Shown: positions 4,985-54,655, counted from the first letter of the stretch. The stretch: 64,000 bases of DNA from Anaerolineales bacterium (GCA_016785015.1 JADHTJ010000006.1:18927-82926), one strand, 5' to 3'. The notes: generated from the letters alone by a model not told the origin. Made by a program: numbers and translations.

Positions 4985-5078
4985 CTTACGTTACGCACAC
5001 GTAGCGGGAAAGTCCTGAAAATAGGGTGTGGGGACTTCGTCTCCGCACCCTATTTTCAGGGATATTTCTCTAAGTGCG
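4985..5078. mobile_element. Truncated MITE-like element (GTTACGCA end) carrying a long hairpin
   Basis: cttacgttacgca end plus tcctgaaaatagggtg...caccctattttcaggga hairpin; similar to 6587 and 38424 in opposite orientation. Confidence 0.6.
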
Positions 5079-5221
5079 CGCTGTGCGACCTCGATGGTGC
5101 GTGATTTGGAATTAGCGGTTATTTATATATTTGCGGTTGACGTACCGCCAGAAAAAATTATCGGCGCATCAAAAGAAAGTATAATTATCACCATACACCG
5201 AAAACATCAAAGGAAAACAAT

Positions 5222-6406: not shown

Positions 6407-6586
6407 TCCTTAACTCAGTTTCCACTAAACGGAGCAACATTCTGTATCCAACCTTCGACTACGCTCCACTGACCGCAGGTCCCCCTTCGGTGTGTTCCAC
6501 TCCGCTCAGGCAGTTTTTGTTATTTTTCTGGCATTTGGGCGTCGCAGTCGAAGGATAATTGTATAGGTGCAACTTAGGTTACTTAA

Positions 6587-6691
6587 CTGATGTTACGCAA
6601 CCTTAACAGAATCTCCCTGGAAATAGGGGGTGGGGGCGAAGATCCCACCCCCTATTTCCAGGGAAACCTCGCTACGTGTGCGTAACATCAG
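6587..6691. mobile_element. MITE-like element, TIR CTGATGTTACGCA, with hairpin cargo
   Basis: Perfect 13-bp TIRs; flanks ttacttaa/ttacctaa (8-bp TSD, one mismatch); near-identical to 38424-38528. Confidence 0.8.
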
Positions 6692-6784
6692 TTACCTAAG
6701 ATCATACGTGCCTAAATCATATCTGGAGAATAACATTGCGCTTTCGCACACTCTCCATCCCGATCGATATCTAAGGAGAGCCAC

Positions 6785-23707: not shown

Positions 23708-23817
23708 GGTTCTTTGGGAATTGTCGTGAGAGACCTCACCTTTGGGGGTAGGGGGCGTGCGGAGCACCCCCCCTACCCTCAAAGGTGGCCCCTTACCACA
23801 GCGATTCCTGGAGACCC
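23708..23817. mobile_element. MITE-like element, TIR GG(T/G)TCT..GGAAT, with hairpin cargo
   Basis: Exact 8-bp TSD cagaaatt on both sides; homologous to 54453-54655. Confidence 0.8.
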
Positions 23818-23880: not shown

Positions 23881-24480
23881 ATGACCGATCAAGAAATGTC
23901 CACCCTACTACAATTCTTCAAAGCACTGTCCAATGAAAACCGCCTAAAGATATTGGGCGTACTGGCACAGAGAGAATGCAGCGTCGAGGAATTAGCCACA
24001 TTGCTGAATCTGAAGCCGCCCACTGTCTCTCATCACCTGAGCAAACTAAAAGATCTCTCTTTAGTGGCTATGCGCAAAGATGGCAACGATCATCTATATC
24101 GTTTAGATGTCGACAGTTTGCACAGCATGTCGAAGAGTGTGTTCACCTCGATCACTGCGGAGAAAGTTGTCACGCTGGCGGATGATGTTGAGTACGAAGC
24201 CTGGGAACGGAGGGTGCTAGAAATTTTCCTGGATGGCGATCAGGTGCTCACTCTTCCCGTGGGTTACAAAAAACGTCTGGCACTGTTTAAATGGATGATC
24301 AATTTCTTTGAAGAAGATCGGAAATACACCGAGCAAGAAGTCAATGAAATCATCCAGCAGCATTATCAAGATTCAGCCACATTCAGACGTGCCTTTATCA
24401 GCAATGGTTTAATGGAACGCGAAGGTGGTGGTGGGCTTTACTGGCGCATCCCCTGGGTAATGCCGGAACTTAAAGGGTAA
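23881..24480 (+). CDS. ArsR-family regulator with C-terminal DUF2087-like domain
   Basis: FKALSNENRLKILG..., PTVSHHLSKL; YTEQEVNEII...D.ATFRR...G.MER. Confidence 0.88.
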   Translation: MTDQEMSTLLQFFKALSNENRLKILGVLAQRECSVEELATLLNLKPPTVSHHLSKLKDLSLVAMRKDGNDHLYRLDVDSLHSMSKSVFTSITAEKVVTLADDVEYEAWERRVLEIFLDGDQVLTLPVGYKKRLALFKWMINFFEEDRKYTEQEVNEIIQQHYQDSATFRRAFISNGLMEREGGGGLYWRIPWVMPELKG

Positions 24481-24495
24481 TTCTCCAGCTAAGCC

Positions 24496-24630
24496 GCACC
24501 CTTCGATACGGCCTTCGTTACACTACACCCTACTCAGGATGCTGAGATCGAGATTATTGGTAAACTCTCTAAACAAATATCCAGCATCCTGAGTAGCACG
24601 AAACAGCGAGGAGTGCGTATCGAAGGGTGC
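24496..24630. repeat. Two inverted bipartite repeats upstream of the GIY-YIG gene
   Basis: gcacccttcgatacg-N19-ctactcaggatgctg, then its reverse complement cagcatcctgagtag-N19-cgtatcgaagggtgc. Confidence 0.9.
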
Positions 24631-24671
24631 GCCGCTATCGAATAATTACACTTCTCAAATGGGTGATTACA

Positions 24672-24965
24672 ATGCCCCGAGCCTGGGTTTATATTCTAAG
24701 CTGTTCTGATGGATCTTACTACACGGGACATACAACAAATCTTGAATATCGTCTCGCTCAACACCAAGATGGCGAAGCCAGCGATTGGACAAAGAGACGC
24801 TTGCCTGTTGAACTTGTCTTTTGTCAAGAAATGCCGGATAGACGCCAGGCGTTTGAAGCCGAACGCCAGGTCAAAAAGTGGTCGCGTGCCAAGAAAGAAG
24901 CGCTAATCGCAGAGGATTGGGATTTGTTGAAATGGCTCGCCAAAAAGCCAAAATTTCGGAAATAG
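24672..24965 (+). CDS. Stand-alone GIY-YIG nuclease (UPF0213-like), 97 aa
   Basis: WVYILSCSDGSYYTGHT..L..RL.QH; A...E.QVKKWSR.KK.ALI. Confidence 0.92.
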   Translation: MPRAWVYILSCSDGSYYTGHTTNLEYRLAQHQDGEASDWTKRRLPVELVFCQEMPDRRQAFEAERQVKKWSRAKKEALIAEDWDLLKWLAKKPKFRK

Positions 24966-24979
24966 CAAAAAAAATGACC

Positions 24980-25084
24980 GCACCCTTCGATACGCTTCGA
25001 ACACCTGGTAAACGAAAAATACCCTGGAACGCGAGATACTGCATGAAGCAATATTTCAGTGAGCGACCGCTACTCAGGATGCTG
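24980..25084 (+). repeat. Third bipartite repeat, downstream of the GIY-YIG gene
   Basis: gcacccttcgatacg-N75-ctactcaggatgctg, with both 15-mers identical to unit 1. Confidence 0.9.
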
Positions 25085-25230
25085 GCATTGGTATGCGACC
25101 GCAGTACAGGATACATGAACAGGATTTTAGGATTAAGAAAACTGAGCAGCAGCCTTGCTACCGCTCAGTTGTTTTTTTGATCTAATTAGCGGATATTTAA
25201 AATATAATCCTGAAAATCCGCGTCCCAAAA

Positions 25231-26265
25231 CTAAAACATCATCGCATTGACTTTGTCAATCGTCTCGCGGCGAGGGCGGATACGGTCATTGGTCAGCCGG
25301 TTGAGAGGTTCTTCGGGCAAATTGTACGTATCAAAGAGCGCTTGTTGCTCTGTATCGATATAGATCAAACCCGTGATTAATTCCTGTTTCGTATTCGCGT
25401 CTTCCAGCATACATAGGATCGTCGAGCGGTCCGTGGGATCGTAATCTGATGCAACTTTGCGCAGCATGATGCGCGAGCCATCGTGCATATCGACCTCTTT
25501 GGATTCGCCTTCGTCATAATCCACCATGATGTCCTCAGCCAGCGGCACATAAGAAAGATCGTGCAAAGCAACTTCGTGATTCCTGCCCCAGGCATAAGAA
25601 TGGTGGGCGTCATCCTGGTTGTTGAAGGTCACACATGGGCTAATGATATCTAGTACAGCGATGCCACGGTGACTCAGAGCAGCTTTGAGCAGCTCACGCA
25701 CTTGCTTGGGGTCGCCAGCGAAGGAACGGGCCACAAAGGTTGCCCGCCCAACAACGGCTTCCCAGATGATGTCGATGGGCATATAGGGATTTTGGCCGTG
25801 CCCCTTTAGTGCCAGGCCTTCTTCGGCGGTTGCAGAAAACTGCCCCTTCGTCAGGCCGTAAACACCGTTATTCGCTACGATATACACCATGGGTAAATTG
25901 CGGCGCATAACATGTTTGAATTGACCCATGCCGATACTGATGGTGTCGCCATCACCGCTCATTGCAATACCCGTCAATGACGTATCAGCGAAGAGGGCAC
26001 CCGTTGCCAGGGATGGCATGCGCCCATGCAGGCCGTTGAAACCGAAGGAGCGCCCGAGGAAATAGGTCGGTGATTTGCTCGAACAGCCGATGCCGCTAAA
26101 TTTGACAATATCTTCGGGCAGGATATTCAACTCGTAGCATGCCGTAATGACCTGGCTGTTGATCGAATTATGCCCGCAGCCTTGGCACAGCGTAGTGGGC
26201 GCGCCACGGTAATCAGATTTCGATAAGTTGATCAGGTTTATTTTAGATTGTTTTTTAGTCGCCAT
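25231..26265 (-). CDS. korB: 2-oxoacid:ferredoxin oxidoreductase beta subunit
   Basis: LCQGCGH, SGIGCS, LHGR, GDGD TPP motif, NNGVYGLTKGQ, SPCVTFN. Confidence 0.93.
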   Translation of the reverse strand: MATKKQSKINLINLSKSDYRGAPTTLCQGCGHNSINSQVITACYELNILPEDIVKFSGIGCSSKSPTYFLGRSFGFNGLHGRMPSLATGALFADTSLTGIAMSGDGDTISIGMGQFKHVMRRNLPMVYIVANNGVYGLTKGQFSATAEEGLALKGHGQNPYMPIDIIWEAVVGRATFVARSFAGDPKQVRELLKAALSHRGIAVLDIISPCVTFNNQDDAHHSYAWGRNHEVALHDLSYVPLAEDIMVDYDEGESKEVDMHDGSRIMLRKVASDYDPTDRSTILCMLEDANTKQELITGLIYIDTEQQALFDTYNLPEEPLNRLTNDRIRPRRETIDKVNAMMF

Positions 26266-26266
26266 T

Positions 26267-28099
26267 TTAGTTGCGCTCCTCACCAAGAATGGCCCCTTTG
26301 ATCCAGGTAGCAGTCAGAGGTAAACCATCGTTATGGGTAAGAGAAATTAAATGTGTCGCTCGTTCCGGTACTTCTAGAGATAGGATTTGGTGCAACTGCC
26401 CATCTCGATTCATTTCGACCACATACACATGCTCGTATTTGCGAATGAAATCTCTGACTTCATCGACGACGGGCAAGGCTCGCAAGCGCAGATAATCGAC
26501 TTCTAGATCTTCTTCGCTCATGTAGTCGATGGCCTCGCGAATTGCAGGGTCCGTGGAGCCGAAGGCGATCACACCAATTGTCGCACCTTTCCGCTTCACG
26601 ATCTCCGGTTGGGGCATCACGCTGCGGGCGTGTTCAAACTTGAGCAGCAAGCGGTCCATACCCTTGACCCAAACATCAGGGTCTTCAGTGTAATTGGCGA
26701 ATTCATCGTGACCAGTCCCTCGGGCAAAGTATCCGCTCTGGGAATGCCGGTTACCAGGCAGGGTTCGGTAAGGAATCCCGTCACCATCGATATCGAGGTA
26801 CCGTCCCCAAATTTCAAGACCCTCAAAATCTTCCTCCCAGAGCACCTTGCCGCGATCAATCTCCTTGTCTGGATACTTGAATGGCGAAGTCATCCACTGG
26901 TTCATGCCCATATCCAGGTCAGACAACAAGAATACTGGGGTTTGGAATCGCTCTGCCAGGTCAAAGGCCTTCCAACCTAACTCAAAACATTCATTCACCG
27001 ATCCTGGAAGCAGTACAATGTGCTTGGTATCGCCATGGCCGAGATAGTAGGTCAAGTTGATATCGCCCTGGGAAGTGCGCGTGGGCAAGCCGGTGCTGGG
27101 TCCCATACGCTGGACATTCCAAATTACGACTGGGGTTTCAGCATAATAGGCCATGCTGGCATATTCGGTCATCAAGCTGATGCCAGGGCCAGAGGTGGAG
27201 GTCATCGATCGTAATCCGCCCCACCCGGCGCCCACAGCCATACCGATAGCGGCTAATTCATCTTCTGCCTGGACAACGGCATAGGTGTTTTTGCCAGTTT
27301 CAGGATCAGTGCGCAACATAGGCAAATACTCAATACATGATTCCGCTAAACTTGAGGCCGGCGTAATCGGATACCATGAAACAAACTGCACTCCACCATA
27401 GATCGACCCCAGAGCACCAGCAGTGTTGCCGCTGGCCATAATCTGTCCCTCGGTCAAGTCCAAATCTTCAAGATAGTAGGGGTCGCTCTTTTGTAAATTT
27501 TCTTCAGCCCATTCGGCAGCTTTTTTTATGATATCTAAATTAAGCTTGATGGGTTTTTCTTTGCCTTTGAAATGGAAATCTAGGGCTTGCTCAATGCGTT
27601 GAGGGTTTATTCCCAGCATTTGAACCAGAACTCCCACGTAAACCATATTTGCGACATACGTTCGCAAGCTTGCAGGCGCATCGGATTCTTTGGCCAGCTT
27701 TTTCACCGGCATGGGATAGGCAACGATATCTTTTCGGGTGATAGCCTGTTTGATATCGTCGGCGTAAAAGAACACCCCACCGGGCACCAACGCAGCCTGA
27801 TCCTTAGCAAAGGTTGTTGCGTTCATGGCTACCATAACTTCAATGGTTTCAGTGCGTGCCAAATAGCCATCTTTGCTAACCCGGATGGTATACCAGGTCG
27901 GCAAACCTTGAATATTGGACGGGAATAAATTTTTCCCCGAAACAGGGATGCCCATCTTGAATAAAGCCCGCAGCAGCGTCAGGTTGGATGTCTGACTGCC
28001 CGACCCATTCATCGTGGCAACAGAGATGGAAAAGTCGTTGACTACTGAGCCGCTTGCTATAGCTTTATTGGATTGAATTTTTGTTTCGACAGTTGTCAT
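26267..28099 (-). CDS. korA: 2-oxoacid:acceptor oxidoreductase alpha subunit (gamma-alpha fusion)
   Basis: NGSGSQ, YPITPAS, QAEDELAA, TSTSGPG, QRMGPSTGLPT, VVEMNRDGQL. Confidence 0.93.
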   Translation of the reverse strand: MTTVETKIQSNKAIASGSVVNDFSISVATMNGSGSQTSNLTLLRALFKMGIPVSGKNLFPSNIQGLPTWYTIRVSKDGYLARTETIEVMVAMNATTFAKDQAALVPGGVFFYADDIKQAITRKDIVAYPMPVKKLAKESDAPASLRTYVANMVYVGVLVQMLGINPQRIEQALDFHFKGKEKPIKLNLDIIKKAAEWAEENLQKSDPYYLEDLDLTEGQIMASGNTAGALGSIYGGVQFVSWYPITPASSLAESCIEYLPMLRTDPETGKNTYAVVQAEDELAAIGMAVGAGWGGLRSMTSTSGPGISLMTEYASMAYYAETPVVIWNVQRMGPSTGLPTRTSQGDINLTYYLGHGDTKHIVLLPGSVNECFELGWKAFDLAERFQTPVFLLSDLDMGMNQWMTSPFKYPDKEIDRGKVLWEEDFEGLEIWGRYLDIDGDGIPYRTLPGNRHSQSGYFARGTGHDEFANYTEDPDVWVKGMDRLLLKFEHARSVMPQPEIVKRKGATIGVIAFGSTDPAIREAIDYMSEEDLEVDYLRLRALPVVDEVRDFIRKYEHVYVVEMNRDGQLHQILSLEVPERATHLISLTHNDGLPLTATWIKGAILGEERN

Positions 28100-38423: not shown

Positions 38424-38528
38424 TTGATGTTACGCAACCTAATGAGAATCTCCCTGGAATAGGGGGTGGGGGCCAGAGCCCCCCACCCCCTATTCCAGGG
38501 AAACCTCGCAACGTGTGCGTAACATGAA
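38424..38528. mobile_element. MITE-like element, copy of 6587-6691
   Basis: ttgatgttacgca...tgcgtaacatgaa; flanks tgactaa/tgacgaa. Confidence 0.8.
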
Positions 38529-40229: not shown

Positions 40230-40724
40230 ATAGTGTTGAAATTTCTTTAATGGGTAAATTGATGTTGAACACTTTGCCTTGTCATTCAGAGGAGCGCAGG
40301 AAGCGCAGCGGCTGCAGCGACGAAGCTTGCCCTGAGCAAGTCGAAGGGAATCCCTGGAAGGTCGAGCCAGTTTATACCTGCATTGGCTCAAATGTATTGA
40401 ACGTATCAGGGATTCTTCGCTCCGCTCAGAATGACATAAGTGTTCAAAGTATTATCACCCATTACATAGTGTTGAAATTTCAAAAAATTTTAGGAGTTAC
40501 CACCCACGATGTGGTTCGCATCCATTTCGAGAGAGTGTCCCAAATGTCAACGCGGCCTAATCACGACAAAGTATTTATAGTAGATTGTCAAAAAAGTGTC
40601 ACTCTGAGCGAAGCGAAGAGTCTCCTACCCTACGGGCAGAGATTCTCACCTGCACTTGCAGCGCAGGTGCAAGTCTCACCCCTTGCCACAGGCACGCCTT
40701 CGGCGACGGGGTTCAGAATGACAG
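40230..40724. repeat. Cluster of nested repeats (family A doublets, an IR shell and a GTGTTGA-ended element)
   Basis: tgtca...tgaca at 40280-40436 and 40597-40724; 16-bp direct repeat at 40230 and 40466. Confidence 0.8.
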
Positions 40725-44412: not shown

Positions 44413-44647
44413 ATCACTCTGAGCGCAGCGAAGAGTCTCCCGCCTTTCGGGTGGAGATTCTTCGCTGCGCTACTAATGACAAACATGTGTCATGCTGAGC
44501 CGAAGGCGAAGCATCTCGCGCACGGATGCGCCAGACTCTTCGCTCCGCAAAGCTGCGCTCAGACTTGTACTGAGCCTGCCGAAGTGCTTGTACTGAGCCT
44601 GTCGAAGTGCCTGTCCTGCGACCGAAGGAAGTGTCGAAGGAATGACA
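44413..44647. repeat. Two tandem family A doublets with an inserted 23-nt module array
   Basis: tcactctgagcgcagcgaagagtct...agattcttcgctgcgct; two copies of cttgtactgagcctgYcgaagtg. Confidence 0.85.
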
Positions 44648-48960: not shown

Positions 48961-49129
48961 TTGGGACACGGATTGCACGGATGACTCCACTGAAAAAACT
49001 ACCAGACGAGGGCTTCCGCCGGAATATATGGGTGTGGTTGCGGAGCAACCACACCCATATATTCCGGCGGGAAACTCGCTTTTTGGAATTTTTTTGATCC
49101 AAATAACCTGCGTGAATCCGTGTCCAAAA
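48961..49129. repeat. Composite inverted repeat: acacggat-type ends around a long perfect hairpin
   Basis: ggacacggatt...aatccgtgtcc; core ccgccggaatatatgggtgtggttgc-gga-gcaaccacacccatatattccggcgg. Confidence 0.8.
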
Positions 49130-54452: not shown

Positions 54453-54655
54453 GGTTCTTTGGGAATCGTCGGGGAGGTTACCTGAATTTAGGGTATGGAG
54501 TGTGCTCCGTACACATCGTGCCCCAAAATCAGGACATTGCCACGGAATTCTGGAATTGCCGTGAGAGACCTGACATTTGGGGGTAGGGGGCGTGTGGAGC
54601 ACGCCCCCTACCCCCACCCTACCACGGCGATTCCTAGAGACCCTCCTAGAGAGCC
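54453..54655. mobile_element. Composite/nested MITE-like element (family of 23708-23817)
   Basis: Exact 8-bp TSD tcaacttt; two tandem right ends (gagaccc, gagagcc) and two hairpin cargos. Confidence 0.8.

Follow-up and report, generated by a model that had tools for sequence, protein, structure and literature searches.

A GIY-YIG nuclease gene between inverted two-tier hairpins in an Anaerolineales genome: a candidate selfish cassette

What kind of system is formed by a very short nuclease gene that stands between inverted copies of a two-part repeat? The question is raised by a locus at positions 24,496 to 25,084 of a 64,000-nt stretch of DNA from an Anaerolineales bacterium (GCA_016785015.1, JADHTJ010000006.1:18927-82926), the whole of which we refer to as the window. 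A sequence-only reading of the locus had likened it to REP repeats and the RAYT genes that they flank, with a small GIY-YIG nuclease as the trans-acting factor, or passenger, of a mobile repeat system. The explanation that we favour, and think probable, is that the locus holds a compact selfish cassette of ~505 bp (24581-25085), in which a GIY-YIG gene has inverted two-tier hairpins as its ends, accompanied by one extra solo hairpin.

As a kind, the arrangement was already published in 2025, REP/RAYT analogy included (Chenal et al. 2025; PMC11893778). According to the part of that paper available to us, SsnA of N. meningitidis is a 94-aa single-domain GIY-YIG protein that binds the hairpin repeat flanking its gene (NTS) and cuts beside it, acting on single-stranded DNA (ssDNA) only and on one strand only, without action on RNA.

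The cassette and its neighbours

The gene at the centre of the locus (24672-24965, + strand) encodes a 97-aa single-domain GIY-YIG nuclease, recognised with Pfam. On its left, unit 2 of the repeat (24581-24631, + strand) reads CCAGCATCCTGAGTAGC-17 nt-GCGTATCGAAGGGTGCG; 40 nt separate it from the start codon. On its right, unit 3 (24978-25085, - strand), which has both arms as in the other units and a 75-nt spacer, begins 12 nt past the stop codon. Unit 2, gene and unit 3 make up the conserved cassette, with the two units as its left and right ends. Unit 1 (24494-24544), an extra copy of the two-part hairpin repeat that reads CAGCATCCTGAGTAG-19 nt-CGTATCGAAGGGTGCGG on the - strand, forms an inverted doublet with unit 2 and brings the whole block to ~590 bp. 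The flanking host genes are an ArsR-type HTH gene with DUF2087 upstream of the cassette (23881-24480, + strand; Pfam) and, downstream and convergent, a korB-like gene for the TPP-binding subunit of a 2-oxoacid:ferredoxin oxidoreductase (25231-26286, - strand).

A search of the window located the 15-mer GCACCCTTCGATACG exactly at 24496-24510 (+), 24616-24630 (-) and 24980-24994 (+), and the 15-mer CTACTCAGGATGCTG exactly at 24530-24544 (+), 24582-24596 (-) and 25070-25084 (+). With up to three mismatches allowed, the window holds five matches to GCACCCTTCGATACG against 1.12 expected (one of 100 shuffles reached five) and five to CTACTCAGGATGCTG against 1.32 expected (none of 100 shuffles reached five). 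The spacers between the two 15-mers are 19, 19 and 75 nt long and unrelated in sequence; the arms share identical stretches of up to 17 nt and, where inverted, are 100% complementary. The sequence-only reading had described three units with perfectly conserved 15-mers and these spacers, which is correct to the base. Coordinates and arm complementarity likewise bear out its inverted doublet of units 1 and 2, and the ORF that it placed between units 2 and 3 is indeed enclosed by them in inverted orientation. Folded as ssDNA, the doublet reaches -38.2 kcal/mol (z = -7.7), and none of 200 shuffles was as stable. In the 4.95-Mb, 81%-complete assembly the exact 15-mers have no copy outside the cassette locus, all 3 + 3 being here.

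A hairpin conserved in structure

On the strand of unit 2 the unit can be written CAGCATCC-TGAGTAG-spacer-CGTATCGA-AGGGTGC. Its outer bases pair, GCATCCT with AGGGTGC (one G-T included), and GAG stands opposite CGA. The unit is a two-tier hairpin, in which a covarying basal stem of 4-7 bp is followed by the GAG/CGA core and the TAG...CGTAT shoulder, both of them conserved, and by an apical stem-loop that varies. The shortest spacer has 4 nt and the longest 106 nt, and many spacers are small stem-loops or nested CTGAG..CGAAG modules.

We examined covariation in 266 distinct units pooled from all fetched loci. The basal-stem positions next to the core, 1 to 4, pair in 97, 98, 92 and 90% of these units, compared with shuffled means of 92, 93, 70 and 71%. 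Moreover, pair types are swapped, position 3 being CG in 201 units and GC in 29, and position 4 being TA in 106, CG in 62, TG in 57 and GC in 11; at locus L010, a T-A pair in the stem has become C-G through a double change. Single units folded as ssDNA with nearest-neighbour energies are weak compared with shuffles (z from -2.3 to +1.1), so the case for the structure rests on covariation, not on energy. The covariation shows that the hairpin is structurally conserved.

The unit shares the base design of a palindrome family, family A (xxCTGAGC..CGAAGxx), but adds the TAG...CGTAT shoulder and the variable apical insert. The sequence-only reading had reported family A throughout the window, and the family is real: CTGAGC-N1-12-CGAAG occurs nine times in the window against 0.31 expected, a count reached by none of 100 shuffles, and the 4.95-Mb assembly has 260 copies, where three Markov simulations gave 27-31. 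A scan for GAG...CGA with a 6-bp stem gave 74 matches against ~65 by chance, an expectation taken from base frequencies rather than simulation, and most of these matches are, in our judgement, due to chance. When the module was defined more strictly, the scan returned 62 matches, the simulated counts being 26-30.

Other palindromes were noted along the way. Clusters of three and four family A modules lie at 40332-40618 and 44419-44607 of the window, with an inverted pair at 44422-44471 and a module at 44489-44520 as examples. A second, unrelated family, rich in GGGGGTGGG / CCCTGGAA..AGGG, is found at 4994-5080, 6579-6699, 23737-23787, 38451-38501 and 54578-54616, the member at 23737-23787 having 24-nt arms and lying ~95 nt upstream of the ArsR gene start. 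Positions 49016-49070 hold a perfect palindrome with 26-nt arms and a 3-nt loop (CCGCCGGAATATATGGGTGTGGTTGC / GCAACCACACCCATATATTCCGGCGG). Elsewhere in the source genome (G000), GCTGTCTGAGG...CTCGAAGACAGC hairpins at C4:28218-28289, C62:5521-5567, C187:42237-42284 and C18:2155-2200 contain one or two additional CTGAG..CGAAG modules within the loop; because of this nesting, hairpin loops may themselves serve as insertion targets for other hairpins.

The protein and its branch

The 97-aa protein matches Pfam GIY-YIG over residues 4-75 (E 2e-17), with no second domain matched. Y7, Y17, G19, R27, H31 and E64 are invariant among 12 aligned proteins, one of them a Neisseria SsnA homologue, and the catalytic residues (two Tyr, Arg, Glu) are intact. 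The clade of the protein has a specific basic C-terminal tail. NCBIfam returned no family for the protein or for the Neisseria homologue. The best solved-structure matches are UPF0213 proteins, BH0048 (PDB 1zg2, E 8e-16) and EF2693 (PDB 1ywl, E 9e-12), and the Neisseria SsnA homologue matches the same solved structures.

We placed the protein in a tree of 112 small GIY-YIG proteins (FastTree), a small tree rooted at its midpoint, without an outgroup. The 97-aa protein and the Neisseria SsnA homologues fall on opposite sides of its deepest split (support 100), though both groups may belong to cd10448, the clade of PMC11893778. The group of the 97-aa protein also holds two further genes of the source genome, on contigs C237 and C114, together with Bacteroidota and sphingomonads; on the other side, the Neisseria homologues are joined by the C56 gene of this genome and by one gene from each relative. 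Eleven hairpin-flanked proteins form one clade (SH-like support 97). A tblastn search of the genome with the N. lactamica SsnA homologue, a stand-in for the N. meningitidis protein, matched the C56 gene (E 9e-13) and did not report the 97-aa gene at E 1e-3, the published definition of a homologue being E < 1e-10 in the available part of PMC11893778. In a pairwise BLASTP the 97-aa protein and the N. lactamica homologue are 32% identical over 73 aa.

The three other small GIY-YIG genes of the source genome lie outside the window. The SsnA-like (group I) gene at C56:1450-1710 (L001) has a different hairpin (CACGCAAAGACGCAAGG...) directly upstream; a group-I small GIY-YIG gene was found, one each, in nearly every relative searched, and this type looks vertically kept rather than mobile. 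The second gene, of 96 aa (C114:7964-9785, L004), is embedded in tandem arrays whose ~76-84-nt unit (GTCATGCTGAACGAAGTGAAG...CTCTTCGCTCCGCTCAGAGTGAC) is of family A; twelve CTGAGC..CGAAG modules lie no more than 1 kb from the gene, where the rate for the whole genome is 0.05 per kb. The third (C237:8672-9223, L002:1501-2052) is 54% identical to the 97-aa protein and has no stop codon of its own, its 183-aa reading running into downstream GCCGGGCTTCGAGA..CCTCAGCCC repeats.

Gene and hairpins together at unrelated loci

Related loci numbered 80, with protein identities of 52-78%. The ten best (66-78%) are from MAGs labelled Chloroflexota/Anaerolineae, Deltaproteobacteria, Calditrichaceae, KSB1 and Deferribacteres and from one unclassified MAG. 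A two-tier unit lies within 450 nt of the gene at every one of these ten, at 2 of 10 loci with 60-65% identity, at 2 of 28 with 56-59% and at 7 of 32 with 52-55%. Units are also denser near the gene (55 per 68.5 kb) than at more than 1 kb from it (14 per 207 kb). When the homologous loci are aligned, the conserved DNA spans the gene and the unit on either side of it, and conservation ends at the outer ends of the units; in the bases outside the cassette ends we saw, by eye, no convincing common target-site motif in the aligned loci.

The surroundings of the cassette are not conserved. The 21 flanking ORFs of 11 loci fall into unrelated Pfam families, none of them ArsR or korB, and gene context is shared by L008 and L009 only. 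The distribution is patchy: among 40 relatives no homologue exceeds 60% identity, yet 66-73% is reached in MAGs labelled Calditrichaceae, KSB1, Deferribacteres and Deltaproteobacteria. The sequence-only reading had named homologues without repeats, sitting in conserved synteny, as the outcome that would speak against its idea; the closest homologues (at least 66% identical) gave the opposite, with the hairpin at 10/10 and neighbourhoods that are unrelated. We take these results to show that the gene and its hairpins co-travel, reaching loci and phyla that are unrelated.

In more distant homologues, L012 and a tandem gene pair of G020, the orientation of the unit relative to the gene is flipped. 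The L360 locus (G020:C85:4638-7916) has two tandem copies of a 55-60% homologue, which are separated and flanked by inverted doublets of a stem-variant unit (GGTTGAGTAG...CGTATCGAAACC).

Solo hairpins and the possibility of a passenger gene

We counted units in 41 related genomes with the pattern CTGAGTAG-N5-35-CGTATCGA. There are 68 in G020, 37 in G025 (nearly uniform), nine in G018, six in G003, five in G005 and two each in G006 and the source genome, with one in each of five genomes and none in 29; a reversed-pattern control gave none in all 41. Solo units in relatives resemble units 1 and 2 at 80-94%, a likeness that extends to the spacers, and the counts show that solo hairpins have multiplied in some related genomes. 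Among 300 further Chloroflexota genomes eight had a match, six of them a single one; since the reversed-pattern control gave nine single matches, the singletons are at chance level, and only G052 (four units) and G202 (three units) look real. The public genome collection has the pattern at at least 128 loci in many phyla, with a rough chance expectation of the same order. These matches nevertheless fall into a small number of spacer lengths, have spacers that are hairpins themselves and are often paired as inverted doublets, and many of them therefore belong to real families.

Repeat abundance independent of the gene had been named as a further outcome against the sequence-only reading, and it is partly what is seen: units also occur in genomes in which no gene of this clade was found (G025, G052, G202), in some cases many units. 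In G025 (93% complete) the sole small GIY-YIG gene is of the other, SsnA-like group, with UvrC besides; G052 and G202 (99-100% complete) gave no match to the 97-aa protein at E 1e-8. Among the matches listed for the public collection, a GIY-YIG gene lies within 1.2 kb at 2 of 128 pattern loci.

Units in such genomes, and solo loci so rarely near a GIY-YIG gene, are what would be seen if generic REP- or MITE-like hairpins were multiplied by a host process, a Y1/HUH transposase or an SsnA-like group-I nuclease, with the GIY-YIG gene riding between two of them as a bystander. Candidate agents are present as well, in the form of Y1_Tnp genes in G000, G020, G025 and G018 and of the group-I gene kept in nearly every relative searched. 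However, none of six Y1_Tnp loci examined has a convincing unit, and all ten closest homologues, in unrelated contexts and several phyla, have the hairpin at both ends of the gene, with conservation stopping there. Such constancy speaks against a chance ride, and we regard a bystander gene as unlikely.

An insertion relative to congeners

Matches to the ArsR gene and korB lie on one contig and 30-128 nt apart in 10 of 13 same-genus genomes; here they are 750 nt apart. The ~590-bp block is therefore an insertion relative to congeners. For the remaining three, korB alone was matched in two, and the third has the genes on different contigs. Nine congener spacers contain little beyond a terminator-like hairpin, and no gene. 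The distal 144 nt of the intergenic gap, with a terminator-like hairpin at 25140-25170 (no strand assigned), resemble this native spacer and lie outside the cassette. The sequence-only reading had placed an insertion between the ArsR gene and korB and had proposed a check for empty sites in relatives, and such sites are what the 10 congeners have. The inserted DNA has structured inverted ends of ~50-108 nt. A classical IS or MITE has terminal inverted repeats together with a target-site duplication; here the intergenic DNA of the congeners is too diverged for the exact junction, or such a duplication, to be read.

Parts of the stretch are present in independent public assemblies of four studies, three of them without any difference inside the cassette, and a single public contig runs from within the ArsR gene, over all three units, to 3 nt short of the korB stop codon. 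Thus, the cassette is not an assembly artefact. The public contigs (X1, X7, X8 and X9) have the filled site only, with no excision variant and no joints; contigs drop rare variants. Among the public runs, none of RNA was listed as carrying the locus.

Since the filled locus is identical wherever it is covered across these assemblies, it is stable in the population. Such stability would suit a domesticated system of the Ssn type, in which the nuclease cuts incoming or exposed ssDNA that bears the hairpin and thereby tunes recombination or transformation. The flanking copies would then be marks or regulators and not transposon ends. In the available part of PMC11893778, service of this kind is the sole experimentally shown role for the family. 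However, the gene is missing at the same site in 10 of 13 congeners, 40 relatives have no close homologue, and the genome has no further target copies of the exact unit. A recent arrival fits the absence from congeners better than a domesticated function does, and we consider the host-serving explanation quite improbable.

A proposed mode of action

We return, then, to the selfish cassette. By analogy with SsnA and NTS, as described in the available part of PMC11893778, the nuclease would recognise its own hairpin in DNA that is single-stranded during replication, transformation or conjugation, and would nick one strand beside it. With the end units inverted, recognition would fall on the top strand at one end of the cassette and on the bottom strand at the opposite end, and as a result both borders would be marked. 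Such nicks might set the cassette and solo hairpins in motion, by transposition or by homing; alternatively, they might serve the host as in Neisseria, with the cassette spreading otherwise.

An RNA-level role, in which the units would be structured signals in the transcript of the GIY-YIG gene or of its neighbours (as terminators, as stabilisers or as a riboregulator), is scarcely credible: the basal stem does tolerate G-T (G-U) pairs, with 203 G-T against 116 A-C at positions 1-7 of the 266 units, and units 2 and 3 could pair across the mRNA, but units occur in both orientations and solo at unrelated loci, no U-tract lies 3' of them, the window and three other GIY-YIG loci matched no Rfam family at gathering score (only microRNA and sRNA matches at chance level, E up to 10), and SsnA is inactive on RNA in the available part of PMC11893778.

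Several observations count against the selfish cassette. The exact unit has not spread in this genome, where all three copies are at one locus. Hairpins occur without the gene (G025, G052, G202), and few of the pattern loci, 2 of 128 among the matches listed, have a GIY-YIG gene. Finally, there are the orientation flips (L012, G020), the weak folding of single units, the unreadable junctions and the contigs that have the filled site only.

We also put forward, as a bolder conjecture that is possible though doubtful, that the nucleases of this branch and their two-tier CTGAGTAG...CGTATCGAAGG hairpins are autonomous minimal transposons of ~0.5 kb. The 97-aa nuclease would then be a transposase acting on hairpin ends in ssDNA, solo and nested hairpins would be non-autonomous offspring, and the whole would be a GIY-YIG counterpart of IS200/IS605 and REP/RAYT that moves between phyla.

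If the nuclease does cut its own hairpin, its branch would represent a second family of hairpin-specific ssDNA nucleases, with a target that is modular and easily recognised. Such cutting would be of interest for the ssDNA tools envisaged in the available part of PMC11893778. The empty sites and the spread across phyla also bear on a question left open in that part of the paper, namely whether units of a nuclease and its hairpin are mobile in their own right.

Comparison with known systems

Like a REP/RAYT system, the locus has a small nuclease gene between inverted hairpin repeats that also occur solo and as inverted doublets. REP/REPIN elements with RAYT genes are said to have been described by Nunvar in 2010 and by Bertels and Rainey in 2011; a RAYT is an HUH Y1 transposase, and the same repeat is present in many dispersed intergenic copies of one genome. 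Here, in contrast, the enzyme is GIY-YIG and not an HUH/Y1 transposase, the Y1_Tnp genes of these genomes are without this hairpin (0/6 loci), and the cognate exact unit is not dispersed, whereas family A is abundant (260 against ~29). The REP/RAYT likeness drawn by the sequence-only reading thus holds for the flanking inverted hairpins and for the solo copies in relatives, but not for dispersal of the exact unit within this genome. Since related genomes have this type of repeat scattered in solo copies, we find the REP-like analogy apt.

The IS200/IS605 elements are single-strand transposons, very small, with structured imperfect hairpin ends and miniature derivatives. By analogy, the cassette would share with them hairpin ends to be recognised as ssDNA, very small size and non-autonomous derivatives that consist of a hairpin only. 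It differs in enzyme class and in that its end hairpins are inverted, not on the same strand, and we know of no transposition chemistry for a 97-aa GIY-YIG protein. The same elements are mentioned in the Discussion of PMC11893778, in the part available to us.

Two other kinds of GIY-YIG protein were compared. Homing endonucleases of the I-TevI/Seg type have a C-terminal DNA-binding domain and reside in introns or phages; the protein here differs in being a single 97-aa domain encoded at a chromosomal intergenic site. The group I intron endonuclease model TIGR01453 gave no match to the 97-aa protein. The UPF0213 proteins resemble it in their single-domain size; to our knowledge these small GIY-YIG proteins have no repeat association, and their function is uncharacterised.

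The Ssn nucleases stand closest in arrangement. In the available part of PMC11893778 (Nat Commun), 71% of SsnA homologues have SRM repeats nearby, and NTS-ssnA-NTS is itself likened to an insertion sequence and to REP/RAYT. Our search for literature on GIY-YIG proteins with REP, REPIN or miniature inverted repeats yielded no other relevant description; the large supplementary tables of PMC11893778 may cover this branch or hairpin. The published SRM sequence, HGTCWYN(0-2)YYVSBRHN(0-5)WNVSBRGN(0-2)RNCYNB, as given in the available part of that paper, does not occur in the window, nor is it in excess in the genome (16 matches against 15, 16 and 30 in three simulations). As far as that part of PMC11893778 allows comparison, both systems have a single-domain GIY-YIG protein of ~90-100 aa, inverted hairpin repeats on both sides of the gene, repeats that are also dispersed, and a spread across phyla. 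They differ in the protein, which here lies opposite the Neisseria SsnA homologues at the deepest split of the midpoint-rooted 112-row tree and whose clade has an extra basic C-terminal tail. They differ also in the hairpin, which here is built in two tiers, its apical insert being variable or nested and 4-106 nt long, and in the insertion, which is documented here by empty sites and for which we found no counterpart in the available part of PMC11893778. What is new at this locus is thus the branch of the protein, the type of hairpin and the documented insertion.
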